Shown here: positions 10,346-55,467 of the stretch, in pieces
Position numbering within the stretch: the first letter of the stretch is position 1
Layout: each line of letters begins with the position of its first letter
Source of the DNA: Candidatus Muiribacteriota bacterium
GTDB taxonomy: Bacteria; Muiribacteriota; Muiribacteriia; Muiribacteriales; Muiribacteriaceae
Length of the DNA: 62,778 nt
Assembly (NCBI GenBank): GCA_051747805.1
Contig: JBNJGP010000003.1
Span: forward strand, 1 to 62,778
Direction of reading: 5' to 3'
Translations under genes and position numbers: made by a program
Notes under the pieces: generated by a model
The model's database searches: none
What the model saw: only the letters and a program-made list of their open reading frames with translations
What the model was told of the DNA's origin: nothing

Positions 10346-10417
10346 GGTACAACTAATTCTATATTAGTTGTTTTACCCTCTCTTTCGGTGTATCGTTTTA
10401 CGGTACACCTTTTTTTT
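10346..10417. other. Two adjacent hairpins between fabH and the mazG-like gene
   Basis: CAACTAAT/ATTAGTTG (10350-10370) and GGTGTATCG/CGGTACACC (10387-10409); the second is followed by a T-run on the plus strand. Confidence 0.5.
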
Positions 10418-11396: not shown

Positions 11397-11408
11397 AATT
11401 CCACTCCA

Positions 11409-12458: not shown

Positions 12459-12542
12459 TTATCTCCCCCTTGTTCTTGTATAATATTACACTTAATCAAA
12501 TTATATTATTAATTTACCGATTATAATTTTAAAGGTGAATTT

Positions 12543-18816: not shown

Positions 18817-19520
18817 TCCTCGTCCTCCGTTAAACCATTTACAAGAAAGCCTTTTTCCTCAACTTCAGGAGTTAAAACTCCTCCAGAAATAATTATTTTC
18901 ATAGCTTCTTCTATTGTAATTTCCAGTTCTACTACTTCTGTTTTCGGCACAAACACTAAAAATCCTGAGGTTGGATTAGGGGTGGTCGGTATAAAAACAG
19001 AATACATTTTATGTTCTCCCAACGAAGTAGTTACAATCCTTGGAGCATCAATAGATACAAAACCTATTACCCAGCACTTCCTTCTAGGATATTCAACTAA
19101 AACCACTTTATTGAAAACAGATTTTTTGTTCTGCTGCATAAACTCAAGAAGCTGCCTGACCGCGTTCATAATATTTTTAGCAAGCGGTATTTTAGAAAGC
19201 ACTTTTTCAATAAAATCAAAGAGTTTTTTTCCAATAACATTTTTGGCTATAACACCTGAACCAATAATAACCGTAAGGGTAAAAATAAACCCTAACCCTG
19301 GAATTCTATGTCCTAGAAAATCATGAAATATTACAGCCACAAACCCGGAATCCGCCCAGGTAAACAGAAGATATATAATATAAAGAGTTAAGGCAGAAGG
19401 CAACAACACAAAAAGTCCGGTTAAAAAATAAGTTCTTGAAATTGAAAGAATAAATGATAATATAGCAGAAAACGTTGTTTTCAAAGCAGTTAAAATAACA
19501 ATAATTTTATTTTTCAGCAA
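18813..19520 (-). CDS. DUF502 domain membrane protein
   Basis: FLTGLFVLLP, IPGLG, IPLAKNI, VVLVEYPR, VFIPTTPNPTSGFL, EEAMKIIISGG. Confidence 0.9.
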   Translation of the reverse strand: MLKNKIIVILTALKTTFSAILSFILSISRTYFLTGLFVLLPSALTLYIIYLLFTWADSGFVAVIFHDFLGHRIPGLGFIFTLTVIIGSGVIAKNVIGKKLFDFIEKVLSKIPLAKNIMNAVRQLLEFMQQNKKSVFNKVVLVEYPRRKCWVIGFVSIDAPRIVTTSLGEHKMYSVFIPTTPNPTSGFLVFVPKTEVVELEITIEEAMKIIISGGVLTPEVEEKGFLVNGLTEDEE

Positions 19521-40661: not shown

Positions 40662-41831
40662 CTATTTATTTTTTTCTATAAAATCTTTTAACTCATTAAT
40701 TTTATCAATCTTTTCCCAGGTAAACTCAGGTTCTGTTCGGCCAAAATGACCATAAGCAGCGGTTTTTTTAAATATTGGACGTTTCAGTTCAAGCTGATTT
40801 ATCAACTCTTTAGGTCTAAGTTTAAAATTTTTTCTTACAGCTTTTTCAAGTAGTTTTTCATCAACTTTACCTGTACCAAAAGTATCCACCATAACAGAAA
40901 CAGGGTCAGATACACCTATTGCGTAGGCCAGTTGAACTTCACATCTATCTGCAAGTTTAGTTGCAACAATATTTTTTGCAATATATCTCGCCATATAAGT
41001 CGCACTTCTATCAACTTTGGAAGGATCTTTTCCTGAAAACGCTCCCCCACCATGTCTTCCAAATCCACCATAAGTATCAACAATAATTTTCCTGCCGGTT
41101 AACCCAGCATCACCCTGAGGTCCGCCCACAACAAATCTGCCTGTTGGATTTATATAGTATTTAGTCTTATCATCAACCATATCTTTACAAACAGCCATAA
41201 TCACATGTTTCATAATATCCATCTTTAAAGTTTCATGATTAACTTCTTCTGAATGCTGAGTTGAAACCACCACACTGTCAATTCTAACGGGTTTATCACC
41301 TTCATACTCAACTGAAACCTGAACTTTCCCGTCAGGTCGCAGATAATCAATTATTGAATTTCTTCTTACTTCTGAAAGTCTTTTACATAATTTATGTGAT
41401 AAATCAATAGCCATAGGCATATAACTATCTGTTTCATTTGTAGCGTATCCAAACATAAGACCCTGATCACCAGCTCCCTGATTTTGATCAACACCGGAGT
41501 TCTCATTTACTCCCTGAGCTATATCCGATGACTGCTCATCTATTGAAACTAAAACTGCACAGGTTTTATAATCAAACCCCATGTCAGAATGAACATAACC
41601 AATTTCTTTAACAGTCCTTCTGACAACTGACGGAATATCAATATATGCACATGTTGAAATTTCACCCACAACATTAATAAGTCCTGTTGTGGTTAAAGTT
41701 TCACAGGCCACTCTGGCTTCAGTATCTTTTTCAAAAATTGCATCTAAAATTGCATCTGAAATTTGATCACACATTTTATCTGGGTGACCTTCTGTAACAG
41801 ATTCTGAGGTAAAAATATATTTTTTTGGCAT
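40662..41831 (-). CDS. metK: S-adenosylmethionine synthetase
   Basis: [55 protein letters not shown]. Confidence 0.98.
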
Positions 41832-41859
41832 AGTTTATACATCCTCCATTTTTGTATGA

Positions 41860-41888
41860 ATTTTACCACATAAAAAAACTATAATCAA
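41860..41888 (-). promoter_or_regulatory. metK: Sigma70-type promoter for metK
   Basis: TTGATT-N17-TAAAAT with a TG extended -10 (TGGTAAAAT); GGAGG RBS downstream. Confidence 0.6.
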
Positions 41889-41936
41889 ATTTATTTAAAA
41901 CCAACAGTAAAACGAGTGGTCAGGTCGAGAAGAGCC

Positions 41937-41978
41937 GTGAGAGGTGAGAAGTAAGAAGTGAGACGATAAGATCAAGAG
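41937..41978. repeat. Degenerate 7-nt tandem repeat
   Basis: GTGAGAG GTGAGAA GTAAGAA GTGAGAC GATAAGA TCAAGAG. Confidence 0.6.
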
Positions 41979-42019
41979 GTTAAAATTTATTACGAAACAA
42001 AATCCCATTGAGAATTGCT

Positions 42020-42051
42020 GGGCAGATTACCGGATTAACCGGAATCTGCCC
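42020..42051 (-). other. Strong hairpin just downstream of the hydrogenase operon
   Basis: GGGCAGATT(A)CCGG-ATTAA-CCGGAATCTGCCC, 13-bp stem with one bulge, no U-tract. Confidence 0.65.
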
Positions 42052-42060
42052 ATATTAAAT

Positions 42061-43806
42061 TTATATATTCCACTCTCTCTTTGTATAATGAGTGTGTAAA
42101 AGTTTATGGGATTTTTCACCCAGTGGTTTTTCTAAAAATTCTTTGTATATCGTCTTAATCGCAGGACTTTCATGGGATTTCCTAAGTTCCATATTAGAAT
42201 CTTCACAATATATAGCATCCATTCTAGCCTGTCTTTTTTCAGGTGAAGTTGGTCTAGGTTGACCGCCGCCGCCAATACATCCACTTGGGCAGCACATAAT
42301 CTCAATAAAATGATAATCTGCCTCACCAGCTCTAATTTTATCAAGAACTTTTCTTGCATTTGAAAGACCGTTGGTAACAGCAACTTTAACAGGCAAATCT
42401 CCAACCTGTACTGTTGCCTCTTTTACTCCTTCCATACCGCGACACATTTTAAGGTCAATTGAAGGAAGCTCTTCTTTTGTTACAACTTCATAAACAGTTC
42501 TTAAAGCAGCTTCCATAACACCGCCAGTAGAACCAAAAATCGCGGCAGCACCGGTAGTTATTCCAAACGGATCATCAAATTTTTCACCCTCTGTCTGCTC
42601 AAAATCCACTCCTGCAACTTTCATCATTTTACCAAGTTCTCTGGTAGTTAAAACAACATCAACATCCTGATAACCGCTTGAGTTCATTTCAGGTCTATTA
42701 CATTCGTATTTTTTAGCAGTACATGGCATAATTGAAACTACCTTTATTTTAGATGCATCAAGTTTTTCTTTTTCAGGATAATATGTTTTTGCAAGAGCAC
42801 CAAACATTTGTTGTGGAGATTTACAGGTTGAAACATTTGGAATTAAATCAGGATAAAAAGTTTCCATAAATTTAATCCAGCCTGGTGAACAGGAAGTTAT
42901 CATCGGAAGAGCAACATCTTTATCGCCGCCTAATAATTTATTAACTCTTTCTAGAAGCTCATGACCCTCTTCCATAATGGTAAGATCTGCTGTAAAGTCA
43001 GTATCAAAAACTTTATCAAAACCCAATTTTCTAATAGCAGCAACCATTTTTTCAGTTGAAAGATATCCATGTTCAAGACCTAGTTCTTCCCCAATTGAAA
43101 CCCTAATTGCAGGTGCTGTTTGAATTACAACATGAGTATCTGGATCTTCTATCCATTCCCATACTTTGCCTGTTTCATCTTTTTCATGAAGAGCTCCCGT
43201 AGGACACACGTTAACACATTGCCCGCAGTATGTGCATGTAGTTTCATGAAGTTTTTTATCTCCAGTTGGAACAGCCATTTTTTCATAGCCTCTGCCGTTA
43301 AACTCAAGAGCATTAACAGTCTGCACCTCTTGACAAGCTCTCAGGCATCTACCGCAGTTTATACATTTTTCATGTTCTCTTACTATTATTCCCGATTCTT
43401 CTTCTTTTTTCTTTGCTGGAAGTTGATTTGAAAAGTAAACATCAGTCATCCCAAAATCAGCAGCTAATTCTTGAAGTTCACAGGAAGTATTTCTTTCACA
43501 TTTTAGACAATCCTGAGGGTGTCTTGAAAGCATAAGCTCAACAGCCATTCTTCTTGCTTCCCTGACCTCTTTAGAATTAGTATTTACAACCATTCCATCC
43601 CATACACGAAATGCACAGGAAGGTTGAAAAAGTCTCTGCCCTTCAATATCAACAACACATACCCTACAGGAACCAACTTCCCTTAAATCCGGATGATAGC
43701 ATAAAACGGGAATATTTATTCCTGCCTGTTTACACGCTTCCAGCACAGTAATTCCTTCAGGTACTTCATATTTTTTTCCATCTATAGTTACATTAATATT
43801 ACTCAT
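42061..43806 (-). CDS. hydA: [FeFe]-hydrogenase catalytic subunit (group A3, HydA/HndD-like), copy 2
   Basis: N-terminal [2Fe-2S], His-ligated [4Fe-4S] (HPQDCLKC), 2x[4Fe-4S]; H-cluster motifs ITSCSPGW, MPCTAKKYE, EIMCCPSGCIGGGGQP. Confidence 0.95.
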   Translation of the reverse strand: MSNINVTIDGKKYEVPEGITVLEACKQAGINIPVLCYHPDLREVGSCRVCVVDIEGQRLFQPSCAFRVWDGMVVNTNSKEVREARRMAVELMLSRHPQDCLKCERNTSCELQELAADFGMTDVYFSNQLPAKKKEEESGIIVREHEKCINCGRCLRACQEVQTVNALEFNGRGYEKMAVPTGDKKLHETTCTYCGQCVNVCPTGALHEKDETGKVWEWIEDPDTHVVIQTAPAIRVSIGEELGLEHGYLSTEKMVAAIRKLGFDKVFDTDFTADLTIMEEGHELLERVNKLLGGDKDVALPMITSCSPGWIKFMETFYPDLIPNVSTCKSPQQMFGALAKTYYPEKEKLDASKIKVVSIMPCTAKKYECNRPEMNSSGYQDVDVVLTTRELGKMMKVAGVDFEQTEGEKFDDPFGITTGAAAIFGSTGGVMEAALRTVYEVVTKEELPSIDLKMCRGMEGVKEATVQVGDLPVKVAVTNGLSNARKVLDKIRAGEADYHFIEIMCCPSGCIGGGGQPRPTSPEKRQARMDAIYCEDSNMELRKSHESPAIKTIYKEFLEKPLGEKSHKLLHTHYTKREWNI

Positions 43807-45393
43807 TTATTCCCCCTCCTTTATGCCTTGAAGAATTTCATTTTCAAAATGTTTTAATCCATCTAAAAATGGATTTACCGCAGCTTGTCCTAATCCACAG
43901 AACGAAGCTTTTTTCATTACATTACAGAGTGATTTCAGCTTTTTAATATCTTCTTTTTTCCCCTGTTTATTATTGAAATTATTAAACATCTCATGAATTC
44001 GGAATGTTCCTTCCCGGCAAGGAGTACATTTACCACAGGACTCATGTTTAAAAAACTGAGCAACTGATAGAAGATAATCGTTTATATCAATATCTTCAGA
44101 ACAGAATAAAATAACACCTGAACCATGAGTTAAATTTTCTGAGGCAAGAGTATCAAGGTCAAGTTTAATATCGAAGTCCTCTTCAGGAACAATATTACCA
44201 GAAGAGCCGCCAATATGAGCAAATTTTACTTTTTTACCAGATTTTGTTCCTCTAGCTATTTTTTCATAAACTTCTCTTAAAGTTATTCCCATTGGAACTT
44301 CAATAATACCTTTTTCGTTTATATCACCAATAATTGTAAAAACTTTAGTGCCTGCCGAACCTTCTACTCCAGTTTTTTTAAACCAGTCGGCGCCGTTTAA
44401 AATTATCTGAGGAAGATTTGCAAAAGTTTCTACATTGTTAACCACTGTAGGTTTTCCAAAAAGTCCCGCAACTCCAGGATAAGGAGGTTTTAATCTTGGT
44501 TCCCCTCTTTTGCCTTCAATTGATTCTATCAGGGCAGTTTCTTCGCCGCAGATATAAGCACCCGCGCCAAGACAGACTTCGATATCAAAATCAAAGCCGG
44601 AACCCATAATATTTTTTCCAAGAAGATTCAGCTCTTTTGCGTCTTTTATCGCTTTATTAATTTTTTCAATTGAAAGTTTATATTCACCACGAATATATAT
44701 ATAACCTTTTGTAGCACCTATTGTATATCCACAAATTGTCATAGCCTCAATAACACTGTGAGGGTCACCTTCCATTATAAGTCTATCCTTAAATGTTCCA
44801 GGTTCACCTTCATCAGCATTACATATAACATATTTTTGATCAGCATCTTTGATATTGTGGGTAAATCCCCATTTAACACCAGTTGGAAAAGCTGCTCCAC
44901 CACGGCCTTTCAAATTGGAATCTTTTACAAGCTCAAGAACCTCTTCAGGACTCATTTCTTCCAAAGCCTTCCCAAGAGCCATATATCCATCATTTGCAAT
45001 ATATTCATTAATATTTTCCGGATCAATTACCCCAGCATTTTTCAAAACAATACGAACCTGCCCGTCAAGAAGCTTTTCAACTTTACCAGATTCTATATGC
45101 TGTCTCGCCTCATCGGAAGGAATAAGTCTTTTAACCTGTCTTCCTTTTATAAGATGTTCCTGAACTAACTCTTCAACATCCTCTGATTTCAAACCTACAT
45201 AAGTAGTTCCTTCAGGATAAACAATAATTGAAACATCATCAAAACCCATACTTCCGGTTTCAACAACTCTAACCTCATTTTGTATTCCCTGCTTTTGAAT
45301 TTCTGAAAGCAGAGCCTCTTTTACCCCTTTTGCCCCTTTTAAAAGAGACGGAGTATCCATACTTATTAAAATATGCGACCTATAAAATTTCAT
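43807..45393 (-). CDS. hydB: NADH/FMN-binding beta subunit (NuoF-like HydB), short form with non-bifurcating signatures
   Basis: GRGGAAFPTG, NADEGEPGTFKDR, GAYICGEETAL, ESCGKCTPCREG; Cys-less N-terminal Trx-like domain; no C-terminal ferredoxin. Confidence 0.9.
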   Translation of the reverse strand: MKFYRSHILISMDTPSLLKGAKGVKEALLSEIQKQGIQNEVRVVETGSMGFDDVSIIVYPEGTTYVGLKSEDVEELVQEHLIKGRQVKRLIPSDEARQHIESGKVEKLLDGQVRIVLKNAGVIDPENINEYIANDGYMALGKALEEMSPEEVLELVKDSNLKGRGGAAFPTGVKWGFTHNIKDADQKYVICNADEGEPGTFKDRLIMEGDPHSVIEAMTICGYTIGATKGYIYIRGEYKLSIEKINKAIKDAKELNLLGKNIMGSGFDFDIEVCLGAGAYICGEETALIESIEGKRGEPRLKPPYPGVAGLFGKPTVVNNVETFANLPQIILNGADWFKKTGVEGSAGTKVFTIIGDINEKGIIEVPMGITLREVYEKIARGTKSGKKVKFAHIGGSSGNIVPEEDFDIKLDLDTLASENLTHGSGVILFCSEDIDINDYLLSVAQFFKHESCGKCTPCREGTFRIHEMFNNFNNKQGKKEDIKKLKSLCNVMKKASFCGLGQAAVNPFLDGLKHFENEILQGIKEGE

Positions 45394-45409
45394 TTATTTC
45401 CCCTCCATA

Positions 45410-45886
45410 TTAATTGTAGTTTTCAAGTACTTTTTTAACGCTTTCAGGATTAAGATTTCCGTGTACATCTTCATTAATCATTACTGCAGGAGCTACCGCA
45501 CAAACACCAAGACATGGTGTAAGCTCCAGGGTGAATTTACCATCAGCTGTTGTCTGATTAACATCAACCCCGAGTTCTTTTTTAAAAGATTCTAAAACAT
45601 CTTTTGCTCCCAGTACATGGCAGGGACTTGATTCACACATTCTTATAACATATTTGCCGCGTTTTTTGTTAGAAAACATTGCATAGAAACTTGTAACCCC
45701 ATAAAGTTTATTCAGGGGGATTTTTGTATGCTCTGCTAATTTCTGCATACATTCATCACAAATATAATTTTCTCCACTTGCATCCTGCATTTTGTGAAGA
45801 ACATCCATAAGATTTCCCTTTTCTTTTGAATATTCTTTCAGGATTGCACTTACATCAACATTACAGCAAGCCATAATTTCCTCCAT
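45410..45886 (-). CDS. hydC: [2Fe-2S] gamma subunit (NuoE-like HydC), copy 2
   Basis: CESSPCHV...CLGVCAVAP; FYAMF. Confidence 0.92.
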   Translation of the reverse strand: MEEIMACCNVDVSAILKEYSKEKGNLMDVLHKMQDASGENYICDECMQKLAEHTKIPLNKLYGVTSFYAMFSNKKRGKYVIRMCESSPCHVLGAKDVLESFKKELGVDVNQTTADGKFTLELTPCLGVCAVAPAVMINEDVHGNLNPESVKKVLENYN

Positions 45887-45923
45887 CTTTTTTTTATCAG
45901 ACTAAAAAGCCCTTTCTTTATTT

Positions 45924-47669
45924 TTATACCTCTTTATAATATTCCTGAGGTTGATACTTAGTATGTAAATATTTATGGGCTGTTTTACTTAATGGGTCTC
46001 CTAAAAAGTTTTTATAAAGCTCTTTAATTGCAGGATTTTCATGGGATTTTCTAAGTTTCATTTTTTTATCTGCTCCATAAATCCCATCTATTCGCTGTAG
46101 CCTTATTTCATTTGTAGTAGGTTTAGGTTGTCCCCCGCCGCCTATACAGCCACCGGGGCAGGCCATTATCTCAATAAAATGATAATCCGCCTCACCTTTT
46201 TTAACTTTATCCATAAGAACCCTTGCATTTGCAAGGCCGCTTGCAACAGCCACTTTCAGCTCTGTTTCTTTACCATCTACTTTTGTTTTAACAGAAGCCT
46301 CTTTAACTCCGTTTAACTTTAAGCCTCTTACCATCTCAAAATCTATTTTCTCAAGCTCATGTCCTTCGACAGTTTCAATAGCAGTTCTCAGGGCAGCTTC
46401 CATAACACCACCTGAAGCGCCAAATATAAGGGCAGCGCCAGTTGAAATACCAAGTGGATTATCAGGCTCTTCATCTTTTAAATTCAGAAAATCAACTTTT
46501 GCCGACTTAATCATTTTTGCAAATTCTCTTGTAGTTAAGACAATATCCACATCTGGATTTCCTTCTACAGAAAGTTCTTTCCTTGCTGCCTCACCTTTTT
46601 TTGCAGTACAGGGCATAATAGAAATATTAACAATTTTTTCAGGATTTATATTATTTTGCTTTGCAAAATAACTTTTAACCATGGCACCCAGCATTTGAGC
46701 AGGTGATTTTGCACTTGAGAGATGTGGAATAAGTTCAGGATAAAAAGTTTCCATAAAGTTTACCCAGCCTGGTGAACAGGAAGTTATCATAGGAAGAGTT
46801 TTATTATTTTTTAACCTGTGAATAAACTCATTACCTTCTTCCATAATAGTTAAATCAGCCCCAAAATCAGTATCAAAAATATGATCAAAACCAAGCTTTC
46901 GCATAGCCGAAAATATTTTACCAGTCACTACTGTCCCTGGATTCAGACCGAACTCTTCACCCAGAGTAACACGTACAGAAGGCGCAACCTGAACCACTGT
47001 AATTTTTTCAGGGTCTAGTATAGCATCCCAGGCTTCATCAATATTTTCTTTATCTTTAAGTGCCGCAACAGGGCAGGAAAGTACACATTGTCCACAACTT
47101 GTGCAAACAGAATCTTTAAGAAGATTATCAAAAGGAGTTCCAACTTCGGCATTAAACCCTCTTTTCTTAGAATAAATTGCACCAACTGTTTGAACAGTAT
47201 TACACATTGTTTCACATCTTTTACAGTATATACATTTTTCACCATCATATCTGAGTGTTTCTGTAACTTTATCCTCGCCTCTTAAAGATTTTTCACCTTC
47301 ATAGGGAATAATATCAATTCCGAGCTCAGCAGCTAAAGTCTGAAGCTCACAGTTCATATTTCTTTCACAGGTTAAACATGTAGTTGGATGATCGGACAGA
47401 ATCAGTTCCAGAACAAACTTCCTTGCCTGGCGAATTTTTTGAGAATTAGTTTTTACTTTCATTCCATCCCTTAAAGGAGCAGTACACGCCGCCTGCAATT
47501 TTGGATTATCGTCTATTTGAACCAGACACATTCTACATGCACCAATTTTTTGTATCTCTGGAACATGGCAGAGAGTAGGTATTTTTACTTTAGCCTTCTG
47601 CGCTGCCTCAAGAACAGTCTTTTCTGATTCTATGTTTATTTTTTTATCATTAATATAAATACTAATCAT
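45924..47669 (-). CDS. hydA: [FeFe]-hydrogenase catalytic subunit (group A3, HndD/HydA), copy 1
   Basis: Same cluster inventory as copy 2; ITSCSPGW, MPCTAKKGE, EIMACPGGCIGGGGQP. Confidence 0.95.
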   Translation of the reverse strand: MISIYINDKKINIESEKTVLEAAQKAKVKIPTLCHVPEIQKIGACRMCLVQIDDNPKLQAACTAPLRDGMKVKTNSQKIRQARKFVLELILSDHPTTCLTCERNMNCELQTLAAELGIDIIPYEGEKSLRGEDKVTETLRYDGEKCIYCKRCETMCNTVQTVGAIYSKKRGFNAEVGTPFDNLLKDSVCTSCGQCVLSCPVAALKDKENIDEAWDAILDPEKITVVQVAPSVRVTLGEEFGLNPGTVVTGKIFSAMRKLGFDHIFDTDFGADLTIMEEGNEFIHRLKNNKTLPMITSCSPGWVNFMETFYPELIPHLSSAKSPAQMLGAMVKSYFAKQNNINPEKIVNISIMPCTAKKGEAARKELSVEGNPDVDIVLTTREFAKMIKSAKVDFLNLKDEEPDNPLGISTGAALIFGASGGVMEAALRTAIETVEGHELEKIDFEMVRGLKLNGVKEASVKTKVDGKETELKVAVASGLANARVLMDKVKKGEADYHFIEIMACPGGCIGGGGQPKPTTNEIRLQRIDGIYGADKKMKLRKSHENPAIKELYKNFLGDPLSKTAHKYLHTKYQPQEYYKEV

Positions 47670-47677
47670 TACTCCCC

Positions 47678-49462
47678 CTACTCCACTTCAATTGCATCAA
47701 ACGGGCATTTTTCATAACACATTCCACATTTAATACAATTATCCTGATCTATTATATGAAGCTCTTTTCTTTCTCCTGAAATAACATCTACAGGACATGC
47801 TTTTTTACATACTCCACAGCCTACACATTTTTCGGTTATTTCATATTTAACTAAATCAGTACATATTTTTGCACGACATTTTCCTTTTTGAATATGTTCG
47901 ATATACTCATCTTTAAAATACCTGATTGTTGAAAGGACAGGATTAGCAGCGGTTTGCCCCAGACCGCATAATGAAGTTTCACAAACCTGCTGACCAAGAT
48001 AAATCAATCTATCGAGGTCTTCTATTGAGGCTTTATTACTTGTAATTTTATCAAGAATTTCATACATTCTTTTTGTGCCAATTCTACATGGAGTACATTT
48101 GCCACATGATTCATCTACGCAAAACTGCATGAAAAACTTCGCCAAATCAACCATACAGGTTTTTTCATCCATAACAATAAGACCGCCCGAACCCATCATG
48201 GTTCCTAGACTCTTCAAGGAATCAAAATCGATTTTTACATCAAGGTTCTCGGCAGAAATACAGCCACCCGAAGGACCACCCGTCTGCGCAGCTTTAAATT
48301 TATTACCATCTGTAATCCCGCCACCTATATCATAAATAATTTCTCTGAGAGATGTTCCCATTGGCACTTCAACAAGTCCCGCATTTGCAATATCACCTGC
48401 AAGAGCAAACACTTTTGTTCCTGGACTATCTTCAGTTCCAATACTTCTAAACTCCTGCCAGCCTTTTTGAATAATATAGCTTATGTTAGCATAAGTTTCG
48501 ACATTATTTATAACTGTAGGTTTCTCAAATAAACCTTTCGCCGCAGGATATGGTGGTCTGGGACGTGGCTCTCCTCTTTTTCCTTCTATTGAATGAATAA
48601 GAGCAGTTTCTTCGCCGCAGACAAAAGCTCCAGCACCAATTCTAACTTCCATATCAAAATTAAATCCGCTGTCAAGAATATTATTCCCAAGCAGGCCATA
48701 TTTTCTGGCCTGAGAAATAGCATTATTTAACCTTTCAATAGCAAGCGGATATTCGGCACGGCAGTAAATAAAACCTTTTGAAGCCCCAGTTGCATATCCA
48801 GCAATCATCATTCCCTCAATAACAAGGTGAGGGTCACCTTCTAATACAGAACGATCCATAAATGCACCGGGATCACCTTCATCTGCATTACATACAACAT
48901 ATTTTAAATCACTTTCGGCCGCCAGGGTAAACTGCCATTTAAGACCGGTGGGAAATCCTCCTCCACCTCTACCTCTAAGTCCTGACTGTTTAACTTCTTC
49001 AATTACATCCGCACTTCTCATGGTAACGGCTTTTGCAATACCTTCATATCCGTCTCTTGCAAGATACTCTTCAATTTTTGTAGGATCGATAAAACCACAG
49101 TTTCTAAGTACTATTTTTTTCTGTCTTTTAAAAAACCCAATATCATTAATTTTTTCAATAAGCTTGTTATCCGGAGATTTAAATAGATACTTATTAACAA
49201 CTCTTCCCTTTAAAACATGCTCTGTAACGATTTCTTCCATATTTTCAGGTTTAAGCCGCTGATAAAAAATACCCTCTGGATAAACAACTACTATAGGTCC
49301 AAGCTCACAAGAACCCATACATCCTGTTTCAAGTATATTAACTTCATTTTCAAGCCCGTGCTTTTTAATTGCCTCTTCAAGAGCTTCTTTGACTTTAATG
49401 CACCCCGAGGATATACATCCGGCGCCGGCACATACAAGCAAATGCATTCTTATTTTTGCCAT
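47678..49462 (-). CDS. hydB: NADH/FMN-binding beta subunit (HndC/HydB), full-length bifurcating type
   Basis: N-terminal CAGAGC...GCMGSC, NADEGDPGAFMDR, GAFVCGEE, GGPSGGC, HIQKGKCRAKIC, C-terminal 2x[4Fe-4S]. Confidence 0.93.
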   Translation of the reverse strand: MAKIRMHLLVCAGAGCISSGCIKVKEALEEAIKKHGLENEVNILETGCMGSCELGPIVVVYPEGIFYQRLKPENMEEIVTEHVLKGRVVNKYLFKSPDNKLIEKINDIGFFKRQKKIVLRNCGFIDPTKIEEYLARDGYEGIAKAVTMRSADVIEEVKQSGLRGRGGGGFPTGLKWQFTLAAESDLKYVVCNADEGDPGAFMDRSVLEGDPHLVIEGMMIAGYATGASKGFIYCRAEYPLAIERLNNAISQARKYGLLGNNILDSGFNFDMEVRIGAGAFVCGEETALIHSIEGKRGEPRPRPPYPAAKGLFEKPTVINNVETYANISYIIQKGWQEFRSIGTEDSPGTKVFALAGDIANAGLVEVPMGTSLREIIYDIGGGITDGNKFKAAQTGGPSGGCISAENLDVKIDFDSLKSLGTMMGSGGLIVMDEKTCMVDLAKFFMQFCVDESCGKCTPCRIGTKRMYEILDKITSNKASIEDLDRLIYLGQQVCETSLCGLGQTAANPVLSTIRYFKDEYIEHIQKGKCRAKICTDLVKYEITEKCVGCGVCKKACPVDVISGERKELHIIDQDNCIKCGMCYEKCPFDAIEVE

Positions 49463-49950
49463 TACGCCTCCTTCTTTCTGTATCCTTCAATAATACCGTC
49501 AATTTCTTTTTGCGTAACTCTTTTATAAATATCAACATCATTTACAACAACTACAGGTGCAAGTGAACAGGCTCCAACACAACGGACAGTCTCCAGAGAA
49601 AACATTCCATCTCTGGTAGTGCTACCGGGTTCAATATTAAGCTTTTCGGCAAACTGTTCAACTAATTTGTTAGCACCACGAACATAACAGGCAGTACCAG
49701 TACAAATTTTTATTACATATTTCCCTTTAGGAACCATATTAAAAAAATGATAAAAAGTTACTGTTCCGTATATTACAGAAAGCGGAATTGAAAGTCCATC
49801 AGAAATACGTTTCTGAATTGCCGGAGTTAATGCACCGTACTCAGTTTGAGCAGCATGAAGGACATTAATTAAAATTCCTTCTTTTGTTTTATTTTTCTCA
49901 ATCAAATCATCCAGATAACTAAAATCTATCTGTTTTTCACACCCACACAT
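49462..49950 (-). CDS. hydC: [2Fe-2S] subunit (HndA/HydC, NuoE-like), copy 1
   Basis: CTGTACYVRG...CVGACSLAP; TFYHFF. Confidence 0.93.
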   Translation of the reverse strand: MCGCEKQIDFSYLDDLIEKNKTKEGILINVLHAAQTEYGALTPAIQKRISDGLSIPLSVIYGTVTFYHFFNMVPKGKYVIKICTGTACYVRGANKLVEQFAEKLNIEPGSTTRDGMFSLETVRCVGACSLAPVVVVNDVDIYKRVTQKEIDGIIEGYRKKEA

Positions 49951-49965
49951 AATATATAACCGTCC

Positions 49966-50331
49966 TTAATTATTTTCTTGTGCAAATACCATATCTCCAA
50001 TTATATTTCCATTAACAATATGTTCGGCAACTATTTTTTTAGCCCCTTCAACATCAACTTTTTTATAAATTATTTTTTTACCATCTTTTTCCACCTCTAC
50101 AAGAGGTTCCTGTTCACAATAACCCATGCATCCGCTTTGAGTAACAATAACATCTTCAATATTTCTTTTTTCAATTTCATCCATAATTGCTTTTGTTACA
50201 TCTCTAGCACCCGCTGCTATACCGCATGTACCAGTTCCAACAACCACTCTGGCATTTGCTTTTCCCTCACGTGACTTAAGATTTGAAACAGCCTGTTCCT
50301 TTAATTTTTTTAACTCATCAAGTGTTGTCAT
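49966..50331 (-). CDS. Thioredoxin-like [2Fe-2S] ferredoxin subunit (HndB/HydD)
   Basis: VVGTGTCGIAAGAR...SGCMGYCEQEPLVEV. Confidence 0.88.
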   Translation of the reverse strand: MTTLDELKKLKEQAVSNLKSREGKANARVVVGTGTCGIAAGARDVTKAIMDEIEKRNIEDVIVTQSGCMGYCEQEPLVEVEKDGKKIIYKKVDVEGAKKIVAEHIVNGNIIGDMVFAQENN

Positions 50332-50336: not shown

Positions 50337-50882
50337 CTACCTCCCGATTTTATTTAACCCTTTTTTTATTTCATTTTTAAGCGCCTTGCTTATTTCTGAT
50401 GTATTTACAGGTATATCTTCAAGTATTTTTTTCCATTCTCTAATATCAAGTGAAAACGAACCTTTCTCTGTACTGTAATTAAAAAGAAAATTTATTTCCG
50501 GATTCAGTACAATTAAGGAATGAAACAAAGAACCTATATCACCTAAAGGCGGTCTGTCAATATGTGAGTGTTTTAATTTTAAAATTATTTCTGTCCCCTT
50601 TCCTATTTGGGAATTAACAGCCAAATCACCCTCGCACATATCAGCAATTTGTTTAGCAAAAGGAATTCCCAGCCCTACTTTCCTAGTTGTTCTAGTTGTA
50701 GTAAAAGGGTTTGTGATTTGTTTCACAAACATGGACGTCATTCCCTTACCATTATCTTCAATAATCAAAGTCAGTATATCACTTTTAATATTTTCGTCAA
50801 GCTGAATTTTTACAAAATCGGCCTCTGCCCGTATGCAGTTTTCGGCAAGATCAAGAATTGTTAACGATAAGTCAGGCATCAT
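50337..50882 (-). CDS. HATPase_c (histidine-kinase-like ATPase) domain protein of hydrogenase loci
   Basis: LTILDLAENCIRA (N box), EDNGKGM (G1), TTRTTRKVGLGIP (G2), HIDRPPLG. Confidence 0.85.
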   Translation of the reverse strand: MMPDLSLTILDLAENCIRAEADFVKIQLDENIKSDILTLIIEDNGKGMTSMFVKQITNPFTTTRTTRKVGLGIPFAKQIADMCEGDLAVNSQIGKGTEIILKLKHSHIDRPPLGDIGSLFHSLIVLNPEINFLFNYSTEKGSFSLDIREWKKILEDIPVNTSEISKALKNEIKKGLNKIGR

Positions 50883-51603
50883 AATAATTGTCTCCTCCAG
50901 AAAAACACCCCTTTTTTAAGGCTTTAAATATTTTTTCTATATTATTCCGGGCTTTAATAAAAAAATACCGGCGACCTATATCTTCAATGGTATGGGCATC
51001 TGAATTAGTTATTGTATTCAAATCATAATGCTCATTTTTCGTAATTTCAAATATTTTGTCTTTATACGAATCGGGAATAAACCCCAGATTAGCAATTAGG
51101 GAATTATACGCCTTATCAATATGCGAAAAAATTATTATTCCATTTCTTTTTTCTGTAAAATTTATAAGTTCCTCTATAGAAAGGGAGGCCTGATTTAAAA
51201 ATTTTTTTTCCATTCTCAAAATATTTTCTTTGTCATCTAAAACTATTTGATAACCTTGTTTTTGTTCATTTATTTCTATATCAAGTAATCTTTTATATAT
51301 CTTAGAGGATAATTCCTCTGCATCCTCAATATTTTTAAATAGAGATAAAACATGAATTTCCTCAGCTGTTGTAACTTCAATACCGGGTATAACTGTAATT
51401 TCTTCTTTTTCAGCAACTTTAACAAAAGCGCGACAGTTCAAACAAGAATTATGGTCAGTTATAGAAACAACCTTTATATTATGCTGTTTTAATTTTTGAA
51501 CAATTTTTTTTGGTCCCATATCAAGGCTACTACAGTTTGATAAAACACTATGAATATGTAAATCAGCTTTTAAAAGTTCTTTTTTATCTGAGGCCTGCAT
51601 CAT
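50872..51603 (-). CDS. PHP domain phosphoesterase
   Basis: DLHIHS, TDHN, GIEVTT.EEIH, SHID, NSDAH; start likely ATG at 51603 or 51600. Confidence 0.87.
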   Translation of the reverse strand: MMQASDKKELLKADLHIHSVLSNCSSLDMGPKKIVQKLKQHNIKVVSITDHNSCLNCRAFVKVAEKEEITVIPGIEVTTAEEIHVLSLFKNIEDAEELSSKIYKRLLDIEINEQKQGYQIVLDDKENILRMEKKFLNQASLSIEELINFTEKRNGIIIFSHIDKAYNSLIANLGFIPDSYKDKIFEITKNEHYDLNTITNSDAHTIEDIGRRYFFIKARNNIEKIFKALKKGCFSGGDNYYDA

Positions 51604-51919
51604 ATAATAAGCCAGCTGTTTCAAATGCATTTTTTTTGGTAGAACAAATTATAACATCTTCTTCCCGGGCTTTTTGAACTGTTTTTTTATCAGGTTTTCT
51701 ACCATTAACAAGAATTATAAGGGCAATTTCCTTTAACGAGGCAACGGCTATTGTATTTTCATGGGCTAATATTGTAATAAGAACACTATTTTCTCCAATA
51801 TTTGCCATAACATCAGAAAGCATGTCTGAAACATATCCTGAACTTATTTCTTTATTTTCTGGCGGCTCTCCAGTTAAAACATCAAGGTTTATAATATTTT
51901 TAATCTCTTCAAATGTCAT
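51584..51919 (-). CDS. DRTGG domain protein
   Basis: GYVSDMLSDVMA, ITILAHENTIAVA, IILVNG. Confidence 0.85.
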   Translation of the reverse strand: MTFEEIKNIINLDVLTGEPPENKEISSGYVSDMLSDVMANIGENSVLITILAHENTIAVASLKEIALIILVNGRKPDKKTVQKAREEDVIICSTKKNAFETAGLLYDAGLR

Positions 51920-53232
51920 TTTTTATCTCCTTTTTTGTTTGACATATCTGATAAATCATTTTTAATATTTTTAATTTTTTCCCTTAATATAAATATACAG
52001 TCATATTTACTTGCCTTGCCTTCTACAATAATATCCTCAGCAAGGGCCCTGCATGTAGGACAGCCACATATACCACAATCAATTCCGGGAAATTCCTCCA
52101 TAAGTTTTTCAATATTTTCGGCTTTTTCCAGTGCTTTTCCAAAATCTTTATCCAGTTTATTTAAATTCCTGGGCTCAGGCTTTTTTTCAAGCAGAAAAAA
52201 ATCCATATCAAGCTCTTTCATATGTTTTTTAGCTTTAAAAGAACCGTTTTTAAAGTGTTTACCAAGCTGCTGAAGGCGAATTTTTGCAAGAAACTTGTCT
52301 ATAGGAGCAAGCACGCCTCCGACACAGCCAGGTACGCAGGCCTGCGCCTCAATAAACTCAAGTGAATTAAATTCTTTAGACCCAATATTTTCAAAAAAAG
52401 AGATAATGTTATGAATACCGGCTACAGCAACTTTCTTTTTGGTTTTTACCGATTTTATTTCACCCTCGTGCACACCCCAGATTATACCAGTGTTTCCCGC
52501 ATGTTCATATTCTTTAATTTCCTTTAAGTTTGTTAATTTGGCCATTACCCTGTCATATACTTCAGTCATAGATAAAGCCCCGTCAACAGGAGACTTTTCT
52601 TTACACTCAGGCTGTTTTACCGCGGTTACTTTAGCAGGACAGGGCGAAATAAAAAAAACACCAACTTCATCTGGCGAAAGTCCCTCTTTCTCATATAAAA
52701 GTTTTTTTGCCAGTTTTGCCGCAATATCCATTGGTGGTTCAAGAAGCATAATATTATCAACATATTCTGGAAACCTGGTTAATATTAGCCTGACAACTGC
52801 GGGGCAGGCCGATGATATTAGAGGTTTTTTTACAGATTTTTTTAAATATTTTTCTGTTGCAAGAACTACGAGTTCGGCAGCTGCCGCAACCTCAAATATA
52901 TACTGAAAACCAATTACATTAAGGGCGGTATAGATTTTATCCAGAGTAATTTTTTCATAATCAAACTGTGCCATAAAAGAGGGGGCAGGAAGAGCAACTC
53001 TGTATTTATATTCAAAAATCGAATCCACAGGTTCAGTAAGAGCATATTTTGCGTTATTCGGGCAAGTTCTAATACACTCGCCACAATCAATACATTTTTC
53101 TTCAAAAATTTTTGCCTTATCATCATAAACCCTTATTGCCTCGGTTGGACACGTTCTTATACAATGAGTACATCCTTTACACTCATCTTCCTTTAGTCTA
53201 ACTGAATGAAAGTATTTTTTTGCCTCCGCCAT
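51916..53232 (-). CDS. Putative sensory [FeFe]-hydrogenase-like protein (group D/HydS-like)
   Basis: N-terminal 2x[4Fe-4S]; altered H-domain motifs ISSACPAV, ISPCPAK, EAQACVPGCVGG; C-terminal DCGICGCPTC...C FeS domain. Confidence 0.82.
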   Translation of the reverse strand: MAEAKKYFHSVRLKEDECKGCTHCIRTCPTEAIRVYDDKAKIFEEKCIDCGECIRTCPNNAKYALTEPVDSIFEYKYRVALPAPSFMAQFDYEKITLDKIYTALNVIGFQYIFEVAAAAELVVLATEKYLKKSVKKPLISSACPAVVRLILTRFPEYVDNIMLLEPPMDIAAKLAKKLLYEKEGLSPDEVGVFFISPCPAKVTAVKQPECKEKSPVDGALSMTEVYDRVMAKLTNLKEIKEYEHAGNTGIIWGVHEGEIKSVKTKKKVAVAGIHNIISFFENIGSKEFNSLEFIEAQACVPGCVGGVLAPIDKFLAKIRLQQLGKHFKNGSFKAKKHMKELDMDFFLLEKKPEPRNLNKLDKDFGKALEKAENIEKLMEEFPGIDCGICGCPTCRALAEDIIVEGKASKYDCIFILREKIKNIKNDLSDMSNKKGDKK

Positions 53233-53242: not shown

Positions 53243-53662
53243 TTAATTAAACTTAATTTTAATTTCAAGTCTGGTTCCTTTATCGACTTCTGTTTTTATA
53301 TCAAAAAAATCTGTGTTTCTTTTTATATTTGGCAGACCCATACCGGCTCCAAACCCCATTTCTCTAACTTTCTGAGATGCAGTAGAAAAACCTTCCTGCA
53401 TCGCCTTATCAATATCAGGTATTCCGGGACCTTCATCCTCAGCTTTTATTGTTATTTCGGCGGGACTTATAATCACCTCCATAACTCCTTTAAAAGCATG
53501 CGCAACAATATTTATTTCTGATTCATACATCGCAATTGCTACTTTCTTAATAACGTTTGCGGGTATTCCTATTTTTTTTAATAATTTTTTTACCTCTGAT
53601 GAGGCAAGACCGGCTTCAGAAAAGTTGCCGCCCTCAATATTAAAAGTTTTTGTTATGCTCAT
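53243..53662 (-). CDS. Anti-sigma-factor-type Ser/Thr kinase (RsbT/RsbW-like)
   Basis: YESEINIVAHA, DEGPGIPDI..AMQEGFST, GAGMGLPNIKR. Confidence 0.88.
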   Translation of the reverse strand: MSITKTFNIEGGNFSEAGLASSEVKKLLKKIGIPANVIKKVAIAMYESEINIVAHAFKGVMEVIISPAEITIKAEDEGPGIPDIDKAMQEGFSTASQKVREMGFGAGMGLPNIKRNTDFFDIKTEVDKGTRLEIKIKFN

Positions 53663-53686: not shown

Positions 53687-54034
53687 TTAAAATTTTTTTT
53701 TAAAAGAACTGTATATTTTACCGGCAGCTGAAAAGAGAGAATCCTTCGTTCTAAGCAAAGTTATTCCTGAATCATGAGCGAGTTCAACAAGCTTTTCATC
53801 AACAAACTTTCCTCTGACAATAATCACAACTTTTATATCAACCATCTCAGCTGTTCTAATTGTCTGAGCATTTGATAATGCGGTAATTAAGGCTGTTTTA
53901 TCACCTTCATGAGTAAAAGCAAGTACATCACTCATTAACTCAGTGCAGCAAAAATCCTCAACCATGAAATCTGAATCATTTATTTCAGTTAAACATTCGG
54001 TATTTAAAATCTCTTCAATTTCTTTAATTTTCAT
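53687..54034 (-). CDS. DRTGG domain protein
   Basis: ELMSDVLAF, LITALSNAQTIRTAEM, IVRGK. Confidence 0.85.
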   Translation of the reverse strand: MKIKEIEEILNTECLTEINDSDFMVEDFCCTELMSDVLAFTHEGDKTALITALSNAQTIRTAEMVDIKVVIIVRGKFVDEKLVELAHDSGITLLRTKDSLFSAAGKIYSSFKKKF

Positions 54035-54075: not shown

Positions 54076-55467
54076 TTAACAGTATATATCTCTTGTTCCT
54101 TCCTCAGTTCTTTTCAGCATATCAATAATTTTATTTTTTAATTTATCATCCTTAACTTTTTCCAGCTCACTTTTAATTAAAAATTCTCCAATTTTTTTAG
54201 TTTCTTCAGATGCATAATCAAGGAGATATTCTTTAAAAGTTACGAGGGCATTTGGATTACAGAAATGATGGATCAATCCAGGTTTAGTAATCTCCATAAA
54301 GTCAATACCTGTTCTTCCAAGCCTGTAACAGGAGGTGCAAAAAGAAGGAATAAAACCATTTTGTGCAAGTTCTTTTATAACTTCATCAAGTTCTCTATTA
54401 TCACCAACCGCAAACTGTTGCACGCTTTCGGGATTATTTTTAGCTTTTTCATAACCACCAGGCGAAGTTTTTGAACCCGCACTAATCTGAGATACTCCAA
54501 TATGAAGTAATTTTGCCCTCAGCTCGGGATTTTCCCTTGTAGATAAAATTAAGCCAGTATATGGGACTGCTAGTCGTAATATTGCAACTAATTTTATAAA
54601 CTCTTCATCTTCTACCGGATATGGAACCTCGGATGCTGCTGGTGCATTTAAGGCAGGCTCAATACGCGGTATTGAAATTGTGTGGGGACCTATGCCTATT
54701 TTTTCCTCAAGATGCTGGCAATGTTTTAACAATGCCAGAGTTTCGAACTTATGCTCATAAAGCCCGAATAAAACCCCTGCTCCCAAATCATCTATTCCTG
54801 CCTCATATGCTTTTTCAAAGGCTGTTATTCTTTTATTATAATCAGATTTAGGTCCGACAGGATGCATTTTTTTATACGTTTCTTTATGATAAGTTTCCTG
54901 AAACATCTGATATGTACCTATATTAGCTCCTTTAATTTTTTTAAAGTCTTCAACTTCAAGAGGCGCCACATTAACATTTATCCGCCTTATATTCTCTTTT
55001 TCAGTTCCTGCAGAATAAACTGCCTCAACTGCTTTTGATACAAAGTCAGGGTTAGCGTATTCTGGATGTTCTCCGCAAACTAAAAGAATACGTTTCTGGC
55101 CCTGTTTTAAAAGAAGTTTTGTTTCTTCCTTAAGCTGATTAAGAGTAAGACTTTTTCTCTGAAGTGATTTATTTGATCTTCTGAAACCACAGTAAAGACA
55201 ATCATTTATACATTCATTAGTTACATAAAGAGGAGCAAAAATTACAATTCTATTGCCGTATATACTTTCTTTAAGCTTTTTTGCCGCTGTTTTGATTTCA
55301 ACAACCAGCCCGGGTTCTTTCACATTTAATAAAACTGCTGTTTCTTCAAGAGATAAACCTTTTTTATCAAGAGCTTTATTAATAATATTTCTAACCTGAT
55401 TGACAGTATAGTTTCGGGCTTTTTCGATAATCTCAAATATCTGTTTTTCATCAATTATTTCTGGCAT
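54076..55467 (-). CDS. hydG: [FeFe]-hydrogenase H-cluster radical SAM maturase HydG
   Basis: FAPLYVTNECINDCLYCGF (CX3CX2C), YQMFQETYH, SVP-like ISIPRIEPA, C-terminal FCTSCYR...C. Confidence 0.95.
   Translation of the reverse strand: MPEIIDEKQIFEIIEKARNYTVNQVRNIINKALDKKGLSLEETAVLLNVKEPGLVVEIKTAAKKLKESIYGNRIVIFAPLYVTNECINDCLYCGFRRSNKSLQRKSLTLNQLKEETKLLLKQGQKRILLVCGEHPEYANPDFVSKAVEAVYSAGTEKENIRRINVNVAPLEVEDFKKIKGANIGTYQMFQETYHKETYKKMHPVGPKSDYNKRITAFEKAYEAGIDDLGAGVLFGLYEHKFETLALLKHCQHLEEKIGIGPHTISIPRIEPALNAPAASEVPYPVEDEEFIKLVAILRLAVPYTGLILSTRENPELRAKLLHIGVSQISAGSKTSPGGYEKAKNNPESVQQFAVGDNRELDEVIKELAQNGFIPSFCTSCYRLGRTGIDFMEITKPGLIHHFCNPNALVTFKEYLLDYASEETKKIGEFLIKSELEKVKDDKLKNKIIDMLKRTEEGTRDIYC

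Follow-up and report, generated by a model that had tools for sequence, protein, structure and literature searches.

Whether or not a HydABC-type [FeFe]-hydrogenase bifurcates electrons decides the energy saving of a fermenter and the H2 pressure limit for its NADH oxidation. The formation of H2 from NADH alone is thermodynamically feasible only at very low H2 pressure. Bifurcating and non-bifurcating enzymes are both known, and at present they are told apart by a few residues and domains, which have been tested on very few enzymes. Here we describe a run of seven genes, hydD-hydC1-hydB1-hydA1-hydC2-hydB2-hydA2, which occupies positions 50331-42061 of the minus strand of a 62,778-nucleotide (nt) stretch of DNA from a Candidatus Muiribacteriota bacterium (an uncultured phylum; contig JBNJGP010000003.1; the whole stretch is referred to as the window). 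The locus appears to encode one enzyme of each type, termed set 1 (HydD, C1, B1, A1) and set 2 (C2, B2, A2).

According to the criteria of Losey 2020 (PMC7311640), a bifurcating HydB has Ala and Met at the NADH site, Phe at the flavin mononucleotide (FMN) site and the motif GGPSG, whereas a non-bifurcating HydB has Thr or Ser and Lys, Ser or Ala at the NADH site, Tyr at the FMN site and no GGPSG. The AFM motif also serves as a criterion of bifurcating HydB in PMC8880783, where the His/Cys site (B2 [2Fe-2S] cluster or Zn) in A. mobile HydB is described with Cys or Thr as its second ligand. All bifurcating [FeFe]-hydrogenases characterised so far possess a domain with the clusters B3 and B4, which the non-bifurcating ones lack (PMC9499530; PMC9304861). 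In T. kivui HydABC, deletion of the HydB C-terminus left low bifurcation while methyl-viologen activity stayed, and knock-out of the N-terminal cluster lowered bifurcation approximately tenfold at the same methyl-viologen activity (PMC10021017). With one such non-bifurcating enzyme in purified form, 2.2-40 Pa of H2 were measured when the NADH/NAD+ ratio was 1-5 (PMC7311640); according to the same study, the non-bifurcating enzyme is found in many non-syntrophs and is no indicator of syntrophy. Genomes encoding both hydrogenase types were already noted there in 2020.

Set beside these systems, the locus most plausibly encodes, with a probability that we put at roughly 0.6, two separate, anciently diverged trimeric [FeFe]-hydrogenases, of which set 1 is bifurcating and set 2 ferredoxin-independent, placed behind one hydG gene and one H2-sensor module. 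The seven open reading frames (ORFs) had been delineated in a first-pass annotation made from the sequence, and their coordinates were confirmed on the minus strand, as was the claim that no gap exceeds 37 nt (15, -1, 8, 37, 16 and 0 nt, from hydD to hydA2). The domain assignments of the seven ORFs by Pfam and NCBIfam had E-values of 1e-30 to 1e-265, and since both gene sets are complete and conserved, a chance occurrence can be disregarded.

Set 1 starts with a hydD-like gene (49966-50331; all genes of the locus are given by their positions in the window and lie on the minus strand), which encodes a thioredoxin-like [2Fe-2S] protein of 121 amino acids (aa) matching PF01257 just under the cut-off (3.7e-5) and the NCBIfam family fdxn_Clost (2e-10). 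The next gene, hydC1 (49462-49950; 162 aa), encodes a NuoE-like protein (PF01257, 2.7e-48) with the four Cys residues of the C1 [2Fe-2S] cluster (CTGTAC...CVGAC). The bifurcating-type flavin subunit is encoded by hydB1 (47678-49462; 594 aa), in which Complex1_51K and NADH_4Fe-4S domains are accompanied by an N-terminal 2Fe-2S_thioredx domain (residues 5-81), with the N-terminal [2Fe-2S] Cys ligands present, and by C-terminal Fer4 families (residues 540-593) corresponding to the 2x[4Fe-4S] domain of clusters B3 and B4. HydB1 has (i) Ala and Met in its NADH-site motif ADEGDPGAFMDR (the AFM motif; T. maritima positions 232 and 234), (ii) Phe in the FMN-site motif GAGAFVCG, (iii) the GGPSG loop in the form GGPSGG, and (iv) the B1 cluster motif. 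When aligned to the ligands C438/C476/H525/C531/C536 of A. mobile HydB, its His/Cys site reads C/T/H/C/C (C436, the T in KITSN, and then H, C and C in HIQKGKCRAKIC). The best solved relative of HydB1 is A. woodii HydB (821 bits, full length), and in a neighbour-joining tree based on 394 core columns HydB1 falls within the bifurcating-motif clade (bootstrap 98).

The catalytic subunit of set 1, HydA1 (45924-47669; 581 aa), carries [2Fe-2S], His-ligated [4Fe-4S] and 2x[4Fe-4S] motifs, supported by Pfam, and the H-cluster motifs TSCSPGW, MPCTAKK and CPGGCIGGGGQP. It scores 858 bits with NF040763, the curated NCBIfam model 'NADH-dependent [FeFe] hydrogenase, group A6' (cut-off 765 bits), which HydA2 passes as well. 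The TSCSPGW form of the first H-cluster motif, found in both HydA proteins, was considered as a possible defect and rejected, because the active A. woodii HydA1 has the identical form.

Judged by its sequence, set 1 thus has every trait by which bifurcating (Bfu-type) HydABC is recognised. The described members of this family (HydABC of T. maritima, A. woodii and T. kivui, and the NiFe-HydABCSL of A. mobile) share with it the subunit set, all cofactor-binding motifs, the AFM/F/GGPSG signature, the His/Cys site and the C-terminal B3/B4 domain, and nothing notable sets them apart from it, the Thr at the equivalent of A. mobile C476 being the known alternative. The HydS, HATPase, PHP and HydD genes upstream of set 1 occur likewise in 'tetrameric' Thermoanaerobacter-type loci. 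What is new in the context of set 1 is the second, different hydrogenase located directly behind it.

This second hydrogenase begins with hydC2, whose NuoE-like product has the four [2Fe-2S] Cys residues (PF01257, 6e-49). The annotated ORF starts with the ATG at 45886 (158 aa), which is probably four codons too early, because a Shine-Dalgarno sequence GGAGG (45884-45880) precedes the ATG at 45874 and the orthologues in two other Muiribacteriota loci (L001, from Ca. Muiribacterium halophilum, and L087) have 154 aa; the gene would then cover positions 45410-45874 and encode 154 aa. The flavin subunit HydB2 (43807-45393; 528 aa) consists of a Cys-less thioredoxin-like N-domain and a NuoF core, with Complex1_51K and NADH_4Fe-4S as its only Pfam domains. 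It keeps the FMN loop GRGGAAFPTG, the NADH site and the B1 cluster motif (ESCGKCTPCREG...CGLG). Its NADH-site motif ADEGEPGTFKDR has the NuoF-like T and K, its FMN-site motif GAGAYICG has Tyr, and GGPSG is missing, with GGSSGN in its place; the same T/K/Y residues and the lack of GGPSG were observed in the HydB2 orthologues of L001 and L087.

Three elements present in HydB1 are absent from HydB2. Firstly, there are no N-terminal [2Fe-2S] ligands (zero Cys in the first 60 residues); the N-domain itself is retained (NCBIfam 2Fe-2S ferredoxin match, 1e-10, residues 19-91). Secondly, D, N and G stand at the positions aligned with the His/Cys site, after which the chain ends, and all five ligand positions are lost. 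Thirdly, the C-terminal 2x[4Fe-4S] domain is lacking, the chain stopping at residue 528 with no Pfam match to Fer4 or 2Fe-2S_thioredx. An AlphaFold model of HydB2 (predicted local distance difference test 81, predicted template-modelling score 0.71) matches the whole length of bifurcating HydB proteins (template-modelling (TM) score 0.84), and that of C. necator FdsB, also along the whole length (TM score 0.82-0.84). The gene hydA2 (42061-43806) encodes a second complete catalytic subunit of 581 aa (882 bits with NF040763), the best solved relatives of which are T. kivui and A. woodii HydA1. Like HydA1, it has complete [2Fe-2S], His-ligated [4Fe-4S], 2x[4Fe-4S] and H-cluster motifs.

The motifs that the first-pass annotation had quoted for the two HydB proteins are present as written, including the N-terminal Cys residues of HydB1 and their absence from HydB2, and its statement that HydB1 has the His/Cys site and the 2x[4Fe-4S] domain, with HydB2 lacking all the extra clusters, was borne out by Pfam and by alignment. 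The contrasts that it drew (D/A/M versus E/T/K, F versus Y, loss of GGPSG, accessory clusters) agree with the criteria of Losey 2020 (PMC7311640), and every published sequence trait of the non-bifurcating NADH-dependent type is found in set 2. The parts missing from HydB2 are those shown by experiment (PMC10021017), or assigned by structural and cryo-EM work (PMC8880783; PMC9499530; PMC9304861), to carry the ferredoxin branch. Going by what is known today, the established mechanism of bifurcation is not open to HydA2B2C2.

The closest relatives of the locus were found in Candidatus Muiribacteriota metagenome-assembled genomes (MAGs), including Ca. M. halophilum. Both L087 and L001 have the same layout from hydG to hydA2, and all seven structural proteins are 71-87% identical to those of the window. 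The identity of set 2 across the three species (74-83%) is as high as that of set 1, and the hydD-like protein is 75-87% identical in L087/L001. Between the sets, identity is 48% for HydB, 49% for HydA and 33% for HydC. HydA1 and HydA2 each cluster with their own L001/L087 orthologues (bootstrap 100) and are not sisters. These values indicate that the pair is old and both of its halves are under constraint, and that each trio has co-evolved as a unit across the three genomes. The HydA tree has bootstrap values mostly below 50, and a co-evolution of HydA with the HydB type is not readable from it. A recent tandem duplication followed by decay of the second copy was also considered as the origin of the pair, and it was rejected in view of the identities of 49% (A), 48% (B) and 33% (C), the separate orthologues of each copy, and the position of HydB2 outside the bifurcating clade.

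A search with HydB2 against 5.8 billion proteins placed it in a large family of the 520-551-aa class, FdsB-like in architecture and spread over many phyla, which is described here from the 120 best matches. Among these, apart from one fragment, all are proteins of 516-552 aa; GEPGTFKDR and GAGAY[IV]CG occur in every one of them, and both GGPSG and a C-terminal ferredoxin domain are missing throughout. About half of the 120 best matches, mostly those from Firmicutes, retain the N-terminal Cys ligands, which are lost in the rest, among them Dictyoglomus, KSB1 and the HydB2 of the window. In the HydB tree, HydB2 and its orthologues lie outside the bifurcating-motif clade, in an unresolved grade (joining nodes with bootstrap below 50) together with other hydrogenase-linked HydB proteins of the T/K/Y type, among them the 407-aa type of the Syntrophomonadaceae.

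The first-pass annotation had likened set 2 to S. wolfei Hyd1ABC. This likeness holds for the diagnostic residues (T, K, Y and no GGPSG) and for the predicted cofactor content, which equals the one tabulated for the S. wolfei enzyme (PMC7311640 supplement), namely 3x[4Fe-4S], [2Fe-2S] and the H-cluster in HydA, FMN and one [4Fe-4S] in HydB, and [2Fe-2S] in HydC. A specific relatedness is not supported. As proxies for S. wolfei Hyd1B we used the proteins of Syntrophomonas curvata, Syntrophothermus lipocalidus and a Syntrophomonadaceae MAG. The 407-aa HydB of S. curvata, which is in the same tight cluster as that of S. lipocalidus (the latter listed in Losey's table), shows the same identity, 53%, to HydB2 and to HydB1. 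Unlike the S. wolfei type, HydB2 has 528 aa instead of 407 and retains a Cys-less thioredoxin-like N-domain, and its host is a salt-lake Muiribacteriota and no known syntroph. The identities, together with a tree in which the joining nodes lack support, suggest that HydB2 is probably not an ortholog of the S. wolfei type, with which it would share predicted cofactor content and residues and no specific ancestry, the common T/K/Y residues being read as the ancestral NuoF state.

Two further described proteins resemble HydB2. The 520-aa 'HymB-like' HydB of Ca. Cloacimonas acidaminovorans (YP_001741249), listed as predicted non-bifurcating in Table S2 of Losey 2020 (PMC7311640), belongs to the same family and length class, has T/K/Y and lacks a C-terminal ferredoxin domain; HydB2 is 50% identical to the corresponding short protein (HydB') of the Cloacimonetes locus L009. 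In contrast to the window, where the short B/C pair owns a HydA, the pair of the Cloacimonetes is situated between a bifurcating-type HydB and the only HydA. From the Ca. Cloacimonas locus, only the HydA-adjacent 520-aa HydB was listed by Losey 2020 (PMC7311640). The second protein is FdsB, the beta subunit of the non-bifurcating NAD+-dependent formate dehydrogenase FdsABG (C. necator, R. capsulatus), which likewise combines a cluster-less thioredoxin-like N-domain with a NuoF core (approximately 500-520 aa). Its sequence match with HydB2 spans residues 8-518 at 37-38% identity; unlike HydB2, FdsB feeds a molybdopterin subunit and not an H-cluster subunit.

Analysis of fetched loci revealed that both HydB types stand side by side in at least eight other lineages. 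One genome-contig pattern scan with CNADEGEP, a motif common to complex I NuoF, gave an unranked sample of 80 loci that contains no Muiribacteriota; since the scan was saturated by complex I NuoF, the pairings are given as examples and not as frequencies. In KSB1 (L089:1-12427 and L090:1-13382), a bifurcating HydB-HydA set is followed by an H2-sensor histidine kinase with response regulators and then by hydD-C-B(short)-A. A direct tandem, hydC-B(388 aa, T/K/Y)-A and then hydB(489 aa, bifurcating-type)-A-C, is present in a Lentimicrobiaceae MAG (L013:1911-9929), and in Ca. Moduliflexus (L012) the bifurcating set and a short HydB are divergently oriented. In Cloacimonetes (L009), Elusimicrobia, Caldisericota and Verrucomicrobiota (L007, L008, L010), the pairing is nested, a short C'/B' pair lying between a bifurcating-type HydB and the only HydA. 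The genes of this nested form follow the order C-(histidine kinase-D)-B(bifurcating-type)-C'-B'(short)-A, and no second HydA occurs within 21 kb. In the Pfam-checked L009 (6238-13362) the order is HydS-DRTGG-PHP-HydC-HATPase-HydD-HydB(619)-HydC'(150)-HydB'(520)-HydA(593), and the corresponding regions of L007, L008, L010 and L011 lie at around 6500-14300. These two B/C pairs are also present in the Bipolaricaulota locus L011, with no HydA detected on the contig. Members of the HydB2 family from Firmicutes and Dictyoglomus stand alone.

Two side observations were made in these loci. The HydB proteins encoded by L007:7937-9604 and L008:7934-9592 combine the bifurcating signature (DPGAYMD, F, GGPSG) with the N-terminal cluster and a His/Cys site of the form H..C....C, and they end approximately 20-25 residues past this site, without the 2x[4Fe-4S] domain, thus representing an intermediate form outside the published criteria. 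The Dictyoglomus thermophilum-like contig L003 (9543-11632) carries hydC and a short hydB of the T/K/Y type (543 aa, N-domain free of Cys). No hydA lies within 10 kb of them, and this module may serve a partner other than a hydrogenase.

We propose that set 1 would link H2 to NADH together with reduced ferredoxin, working in the confurcating or in the bifurcating direction. Its ferredoxin branch would start at the FMN and C1, pass the His/Cys site and end at the pair of C-terminal [4Fe-4S] clusters in HydB1. Set 2 would have only a straight wire from NADH through FMN, B1 and the HydA clusters to the H-cluster, and would for this reason interconvert NADH and H2 without ferredoxin. Its H2 evolution would be confined to H2 pressures of a few to tens of Pa, above which it would run in the uptake direction, toward NADH. 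With both enzymes running together, the fixed stoichiometry of the bifurcating enzyme (1 NADH : 2 ferredoxin) would be uncoupled; the cell could then vent or recover NADH independently and balance any NADH/ferredoxin mix against H2. Because both sets are transcribed in the same salt-lake samples, we favour such parallel operation over an on/off switch governed by H2 pressure. The HydS-like sensor encoded upstream suggests that the whole locus responds to H2, and nothing specific supports a role in syntrophy. It should be added that we infer the ferredoxin independence, the catalytic direction and the physiological role of set 2 from sequence.

Several points weigh against the reading of two separate enzymes with different electron donors. 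The criteria applied were built on 17 sequences, and the non-bifurcating hydrogenases among these are of the 407-aa or the fused type, to which HydB2 is no closer than HydB1. We know of no purified or characterised member of the 520-551-aa HydB family. HydA2 shares N-terminal cluster domains with the ferredoxin-dependent CpI, so that an uncoupled use of ferredoxin is possible. The single HydA shared in the nested loci suggests that the modules may not always act as independent enzymes. Finally, the RNA evidence derives from assembled contigs (depths 1-15) of six salt-lake metatranscriptomes (X1-X6) and not from reads, and contig depths and ends are weak measures.

The nested one-HydA loci of Cloacimonetes, Elusimicrobia, Caldisericota and Verrucomicrobiota also speak for an alternative that we regard as unlikely, i.e. 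that the window encodes one modular enzyme. B1/C1 and B2/C2 would be interchangeable arms on either HydA, or HydA1 and HydA2 would form hetero-oligomers via the His-ligated [4Fe-4S] interface, and complexes with bifurcating and non-bifurcating arms would share electrons. In agreement with this, HydABC enzymes of solved structure form oligomers in which the HydA subunits are in electrical contact (PMC9499530), loss of the interface cluster turns the T. kivui enzyme monomeric (PMC10021017), and HPxxCxxCxxxxxC is kept in both HydA1 and HydA2. However, each B/C pair of the window has its own HydA and the trios have co-evolved across three genomes, and the low identities of HydC1 and HydC2 (33%) and of HydA1 and HydA2 (49%) argue for separate partner specificities. 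To our knowledge, there is no biochemical precedent for interchangeable B/C arms or for mixed HydA complexes. In a more general form, which we consider improbable too, the recurrent linked bifurcating and non-bifurcating B/C modules would be exchangeable arms on a common HydA core, with the window as the fully duplicated form and the one-HydA loci as the minimal one. If this were true, one complex would accept electrons from NADH with or without ferredoxin, tuned by the H2 sensor, and electron bifurcation would be regulated in a new manner, via subunit exchange.

Little probability is assigned by us to a further alternative, according to which set 2 is not restricted to NADH and instead uses ferredoxin or flavodoxin in an uncoupled manner through the N-terminal clusters of HydA2, uses NADPH, or bifurcates with the aid of, for example, the 121-aa HydD-like ferredoxin; the Losey criteria would then not transfer to the HydB2 family. 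Besides the placement of this uncharacterised family in the grade beside the bifurcating clade, such a reading can draw on the best solved matches of HydB2, which are bifurcating HydB proteins (562 bits) and not NuoF (379 bits), on the N-terminal [2Fe-2S] cluster retained by the Firmicutes members, and on the HydD-like gene owned by the short sets of Firmicutes and KSB1. It is opposed by the lack of all three ferredoxin-branch elements in HydB2, including every ligand of the His/Cys site, by the NADH- and FMN-site residues of HydB2, which are the non-bifurcating ones, and by set 2 having no hydD gene of its own in the window. That set 2 has no role of its own and is a redundant or decaying paralogue, as its loss of three cofactor sites relative to set 1 might suggest, is highly improbable and effectively refuted by its conservation (74-83% across three species) and transcription (contig depth above that of set 1 in four metatranscriptomes), the catalytic, FMN, NADH, B1 and C1 motifs all being intact and the multi-phylum HydB2 family sharing length class and motifs among its 120 best matches.

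Each of the two enzyme types, as assigned in the reading of two separate hydrogenases, is known alone, and the novelty lies in their side-by-side placement under one H2-sensing control module. A search of the accessible literature found no paper connecting Muiribacteriota with hydrogenases, and no description of bifurcating and non-bifurcating sets in one gene run or of the nested form. The locus constitutes a natural matched pair (one organism, the same regulator, 48-49% identical subunits) differing in the proposed bifurcation elements, which could be used for testing the determinants of bifurcation and could provide the first data on the widespread 520-551-aa HydB family. The recurrence of the pairing in at least eight lineages suggests that combining both modes is a general strategy overlooked by annotation; the HydB proteins concerned are labelled 'NuoF' by annotation pipelines. 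Should set 2 prove to be an ordinary NADH-dependent enzyme, it would be a useful but modest addition to hydrogenase diversity.

The claim of the first-pass annotation that both sets form one operon is consistent with their common strand, with the short gaps and with the lack of a terminator in the hydA1-hydC2 spacer, but it is weakened by the RNA contigs, none of which crosses this spacer and whose depth differs approximately threefold between the sets, and by the canonical terminator present after hydA1 in the sister species Ca. M. halophilum. The spacer (45875-45923, minus strand; 37 nt to the ATG at 45886 and 49 nt to that at 45874) contains no stable hairpin (-3.5 kcal/mol, z -0.29) and no terminator-like site, so that read-through is possible. 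Its counterpart has 15 nt in L087 and 145 nt in Ca. M. halophilum. In the latter, the terminator GGGCAGA-GAAA-TCTGCCC with UUUUU (L001:9382-9408, plus strand; -19 kcal/mol, z -4.85) is followed by an AT-rich stretch. The window spacer retains only AAAGGGC/TTTTT, which looks like a remnant of the terminator present in L001.

The RNA contigs over hydC2 end at 45926 (X1), 45884, 45894, 45894, 45893 and 45883, and one RNA contig has adapter sequence joined directly at 45894. In none of the six metatranscriptome assemblies did a contig, all being of low depth, reach into hydA1 past its stop codon; a DNA contig from another run spans the spacer. The mean contig depth of set 2 was about three times that of set 1 in all four runs compared over the whole locus. 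These observations are suggestive of an RNA 5' end, originating from a promoter or a processing site, at approximately 45883-45894, just upstream of hydC2. Set 2 thus probably has its own RNA 5' end and an approximately threefold stronger representation, and the assignment of both sets to one operon is uncertain. A sigma-70 promoter scan gave 51 sites against 48 expected, with no convincing -35/-10 pair upstream of 45894. Some RNA contigs join hydA2 to hydA1 positions (42882/46834 and 43732/46596). These joints consist of 21-22 nt matches at the ends of contigs that otherwise come from other organisms' hydrogenases, and conserved motifs have most likely produced them as artefacts of alignment or assembly.

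A strong stem-loop (42020-42051, minus strand; -24.5 kcal/mol, z -5.9, equalled by none of 200 shuffled sequences) is located 10 nt after the hydA2 stop codon, with no U-run directly behind it, and it probably marks the 3' end of the unit or stabilises the RNA. One RNA contig (X1, depth 14; 41362-44343) runs from hydB2 through hydA2, the hairpin and a 229-nt gap into metK, which reflects either read-through or DNA carry-over. Searched with Rfam at gathering scores, the window gave no match, and the gap between hydA2 and metK had none even at E <= 1; hence, no recognised riboswitch precedes metK. The stem GGGCAGA...TCTGCCC is common to this hairpin behind hydA2 and to the Ca. M. halophilum terminator behind hydA1, and it looks like a recurring terminator element that has been deleted from the window spacer.

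The hyd genes are part of an unbroken same-strand gene run (55467-42020, minus strand) composed of hydG, a regulatory block, set 1 and set 2. At its head, hydG (54076-55467) encodes the radical-SAM maturase of the H-cluster (TIGR03955 rSAM_HydG, 523 bits against a cut-off of 312; Pfam Radical_SAM and BATS), and it occupies the equivalent position in L001 and L087. The next ORF (53687-54034) encodes a small protein of 115 aa, for which no Pfam match was obtained with the window copy; it is the positional equivalent of a DRTGG-domain protein, the gene at that position in L087 and L001 matching DRTGG. It is followed by genes for a regulatory histidine-kinase-like ATPase of 139 aa (53243-53662; HATPase_c and HATPase_c_2) and for a HydS-like sensory [FeFe]-hydrogenase homologue of 438 aa (51916-53232) with 2x[4Fe-4S], an H-domain and a C-terminal FeS motif (Fe_hyd_lg_C, 2.3e-38; Fer4 families; PF04060 FeS). 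The score of the latter is far under the cut-offs of the catalytic families, and a HydS-like gene is also found upstream of the hyd sets in L001, L087, L009, L089 and L090. The remaining genes of the block encode a DRTGG-domain protein of 111 aa (51584-51919; PF07085, 2.3e-9), a PHP-domain protein of 252 aa, putatively the phosphoesterase of the regulatory module (50872-51630; PHP and PHP_C), and a second histidine-kinase-like ATPase, of 181 aa (50337-50882; HATPase_c, 3e-15).

The hyd genes (42-50 kb) have a GC content of 36-38%, compared with approximately 30% in the flanks. Throughout the window (1-62778), 58 of about 60 ORFs are on the minus strand and the GC skew is negative in every 2-kb bin, which places the window wholly on one replichore and shows a very pronounced strand bias of its genes. 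Two adjacent paralogous genes for CNNM/CBS/CorC-type transporters (396 and 326 aa) are located at 19507-21779. A DarT/Macro-domain pair (L001:13650-15335), a DarTG-type toxin-antitoxin or defence module, comes after the hyd locus of Ca. M. halophilum, at the place where the window has metK.

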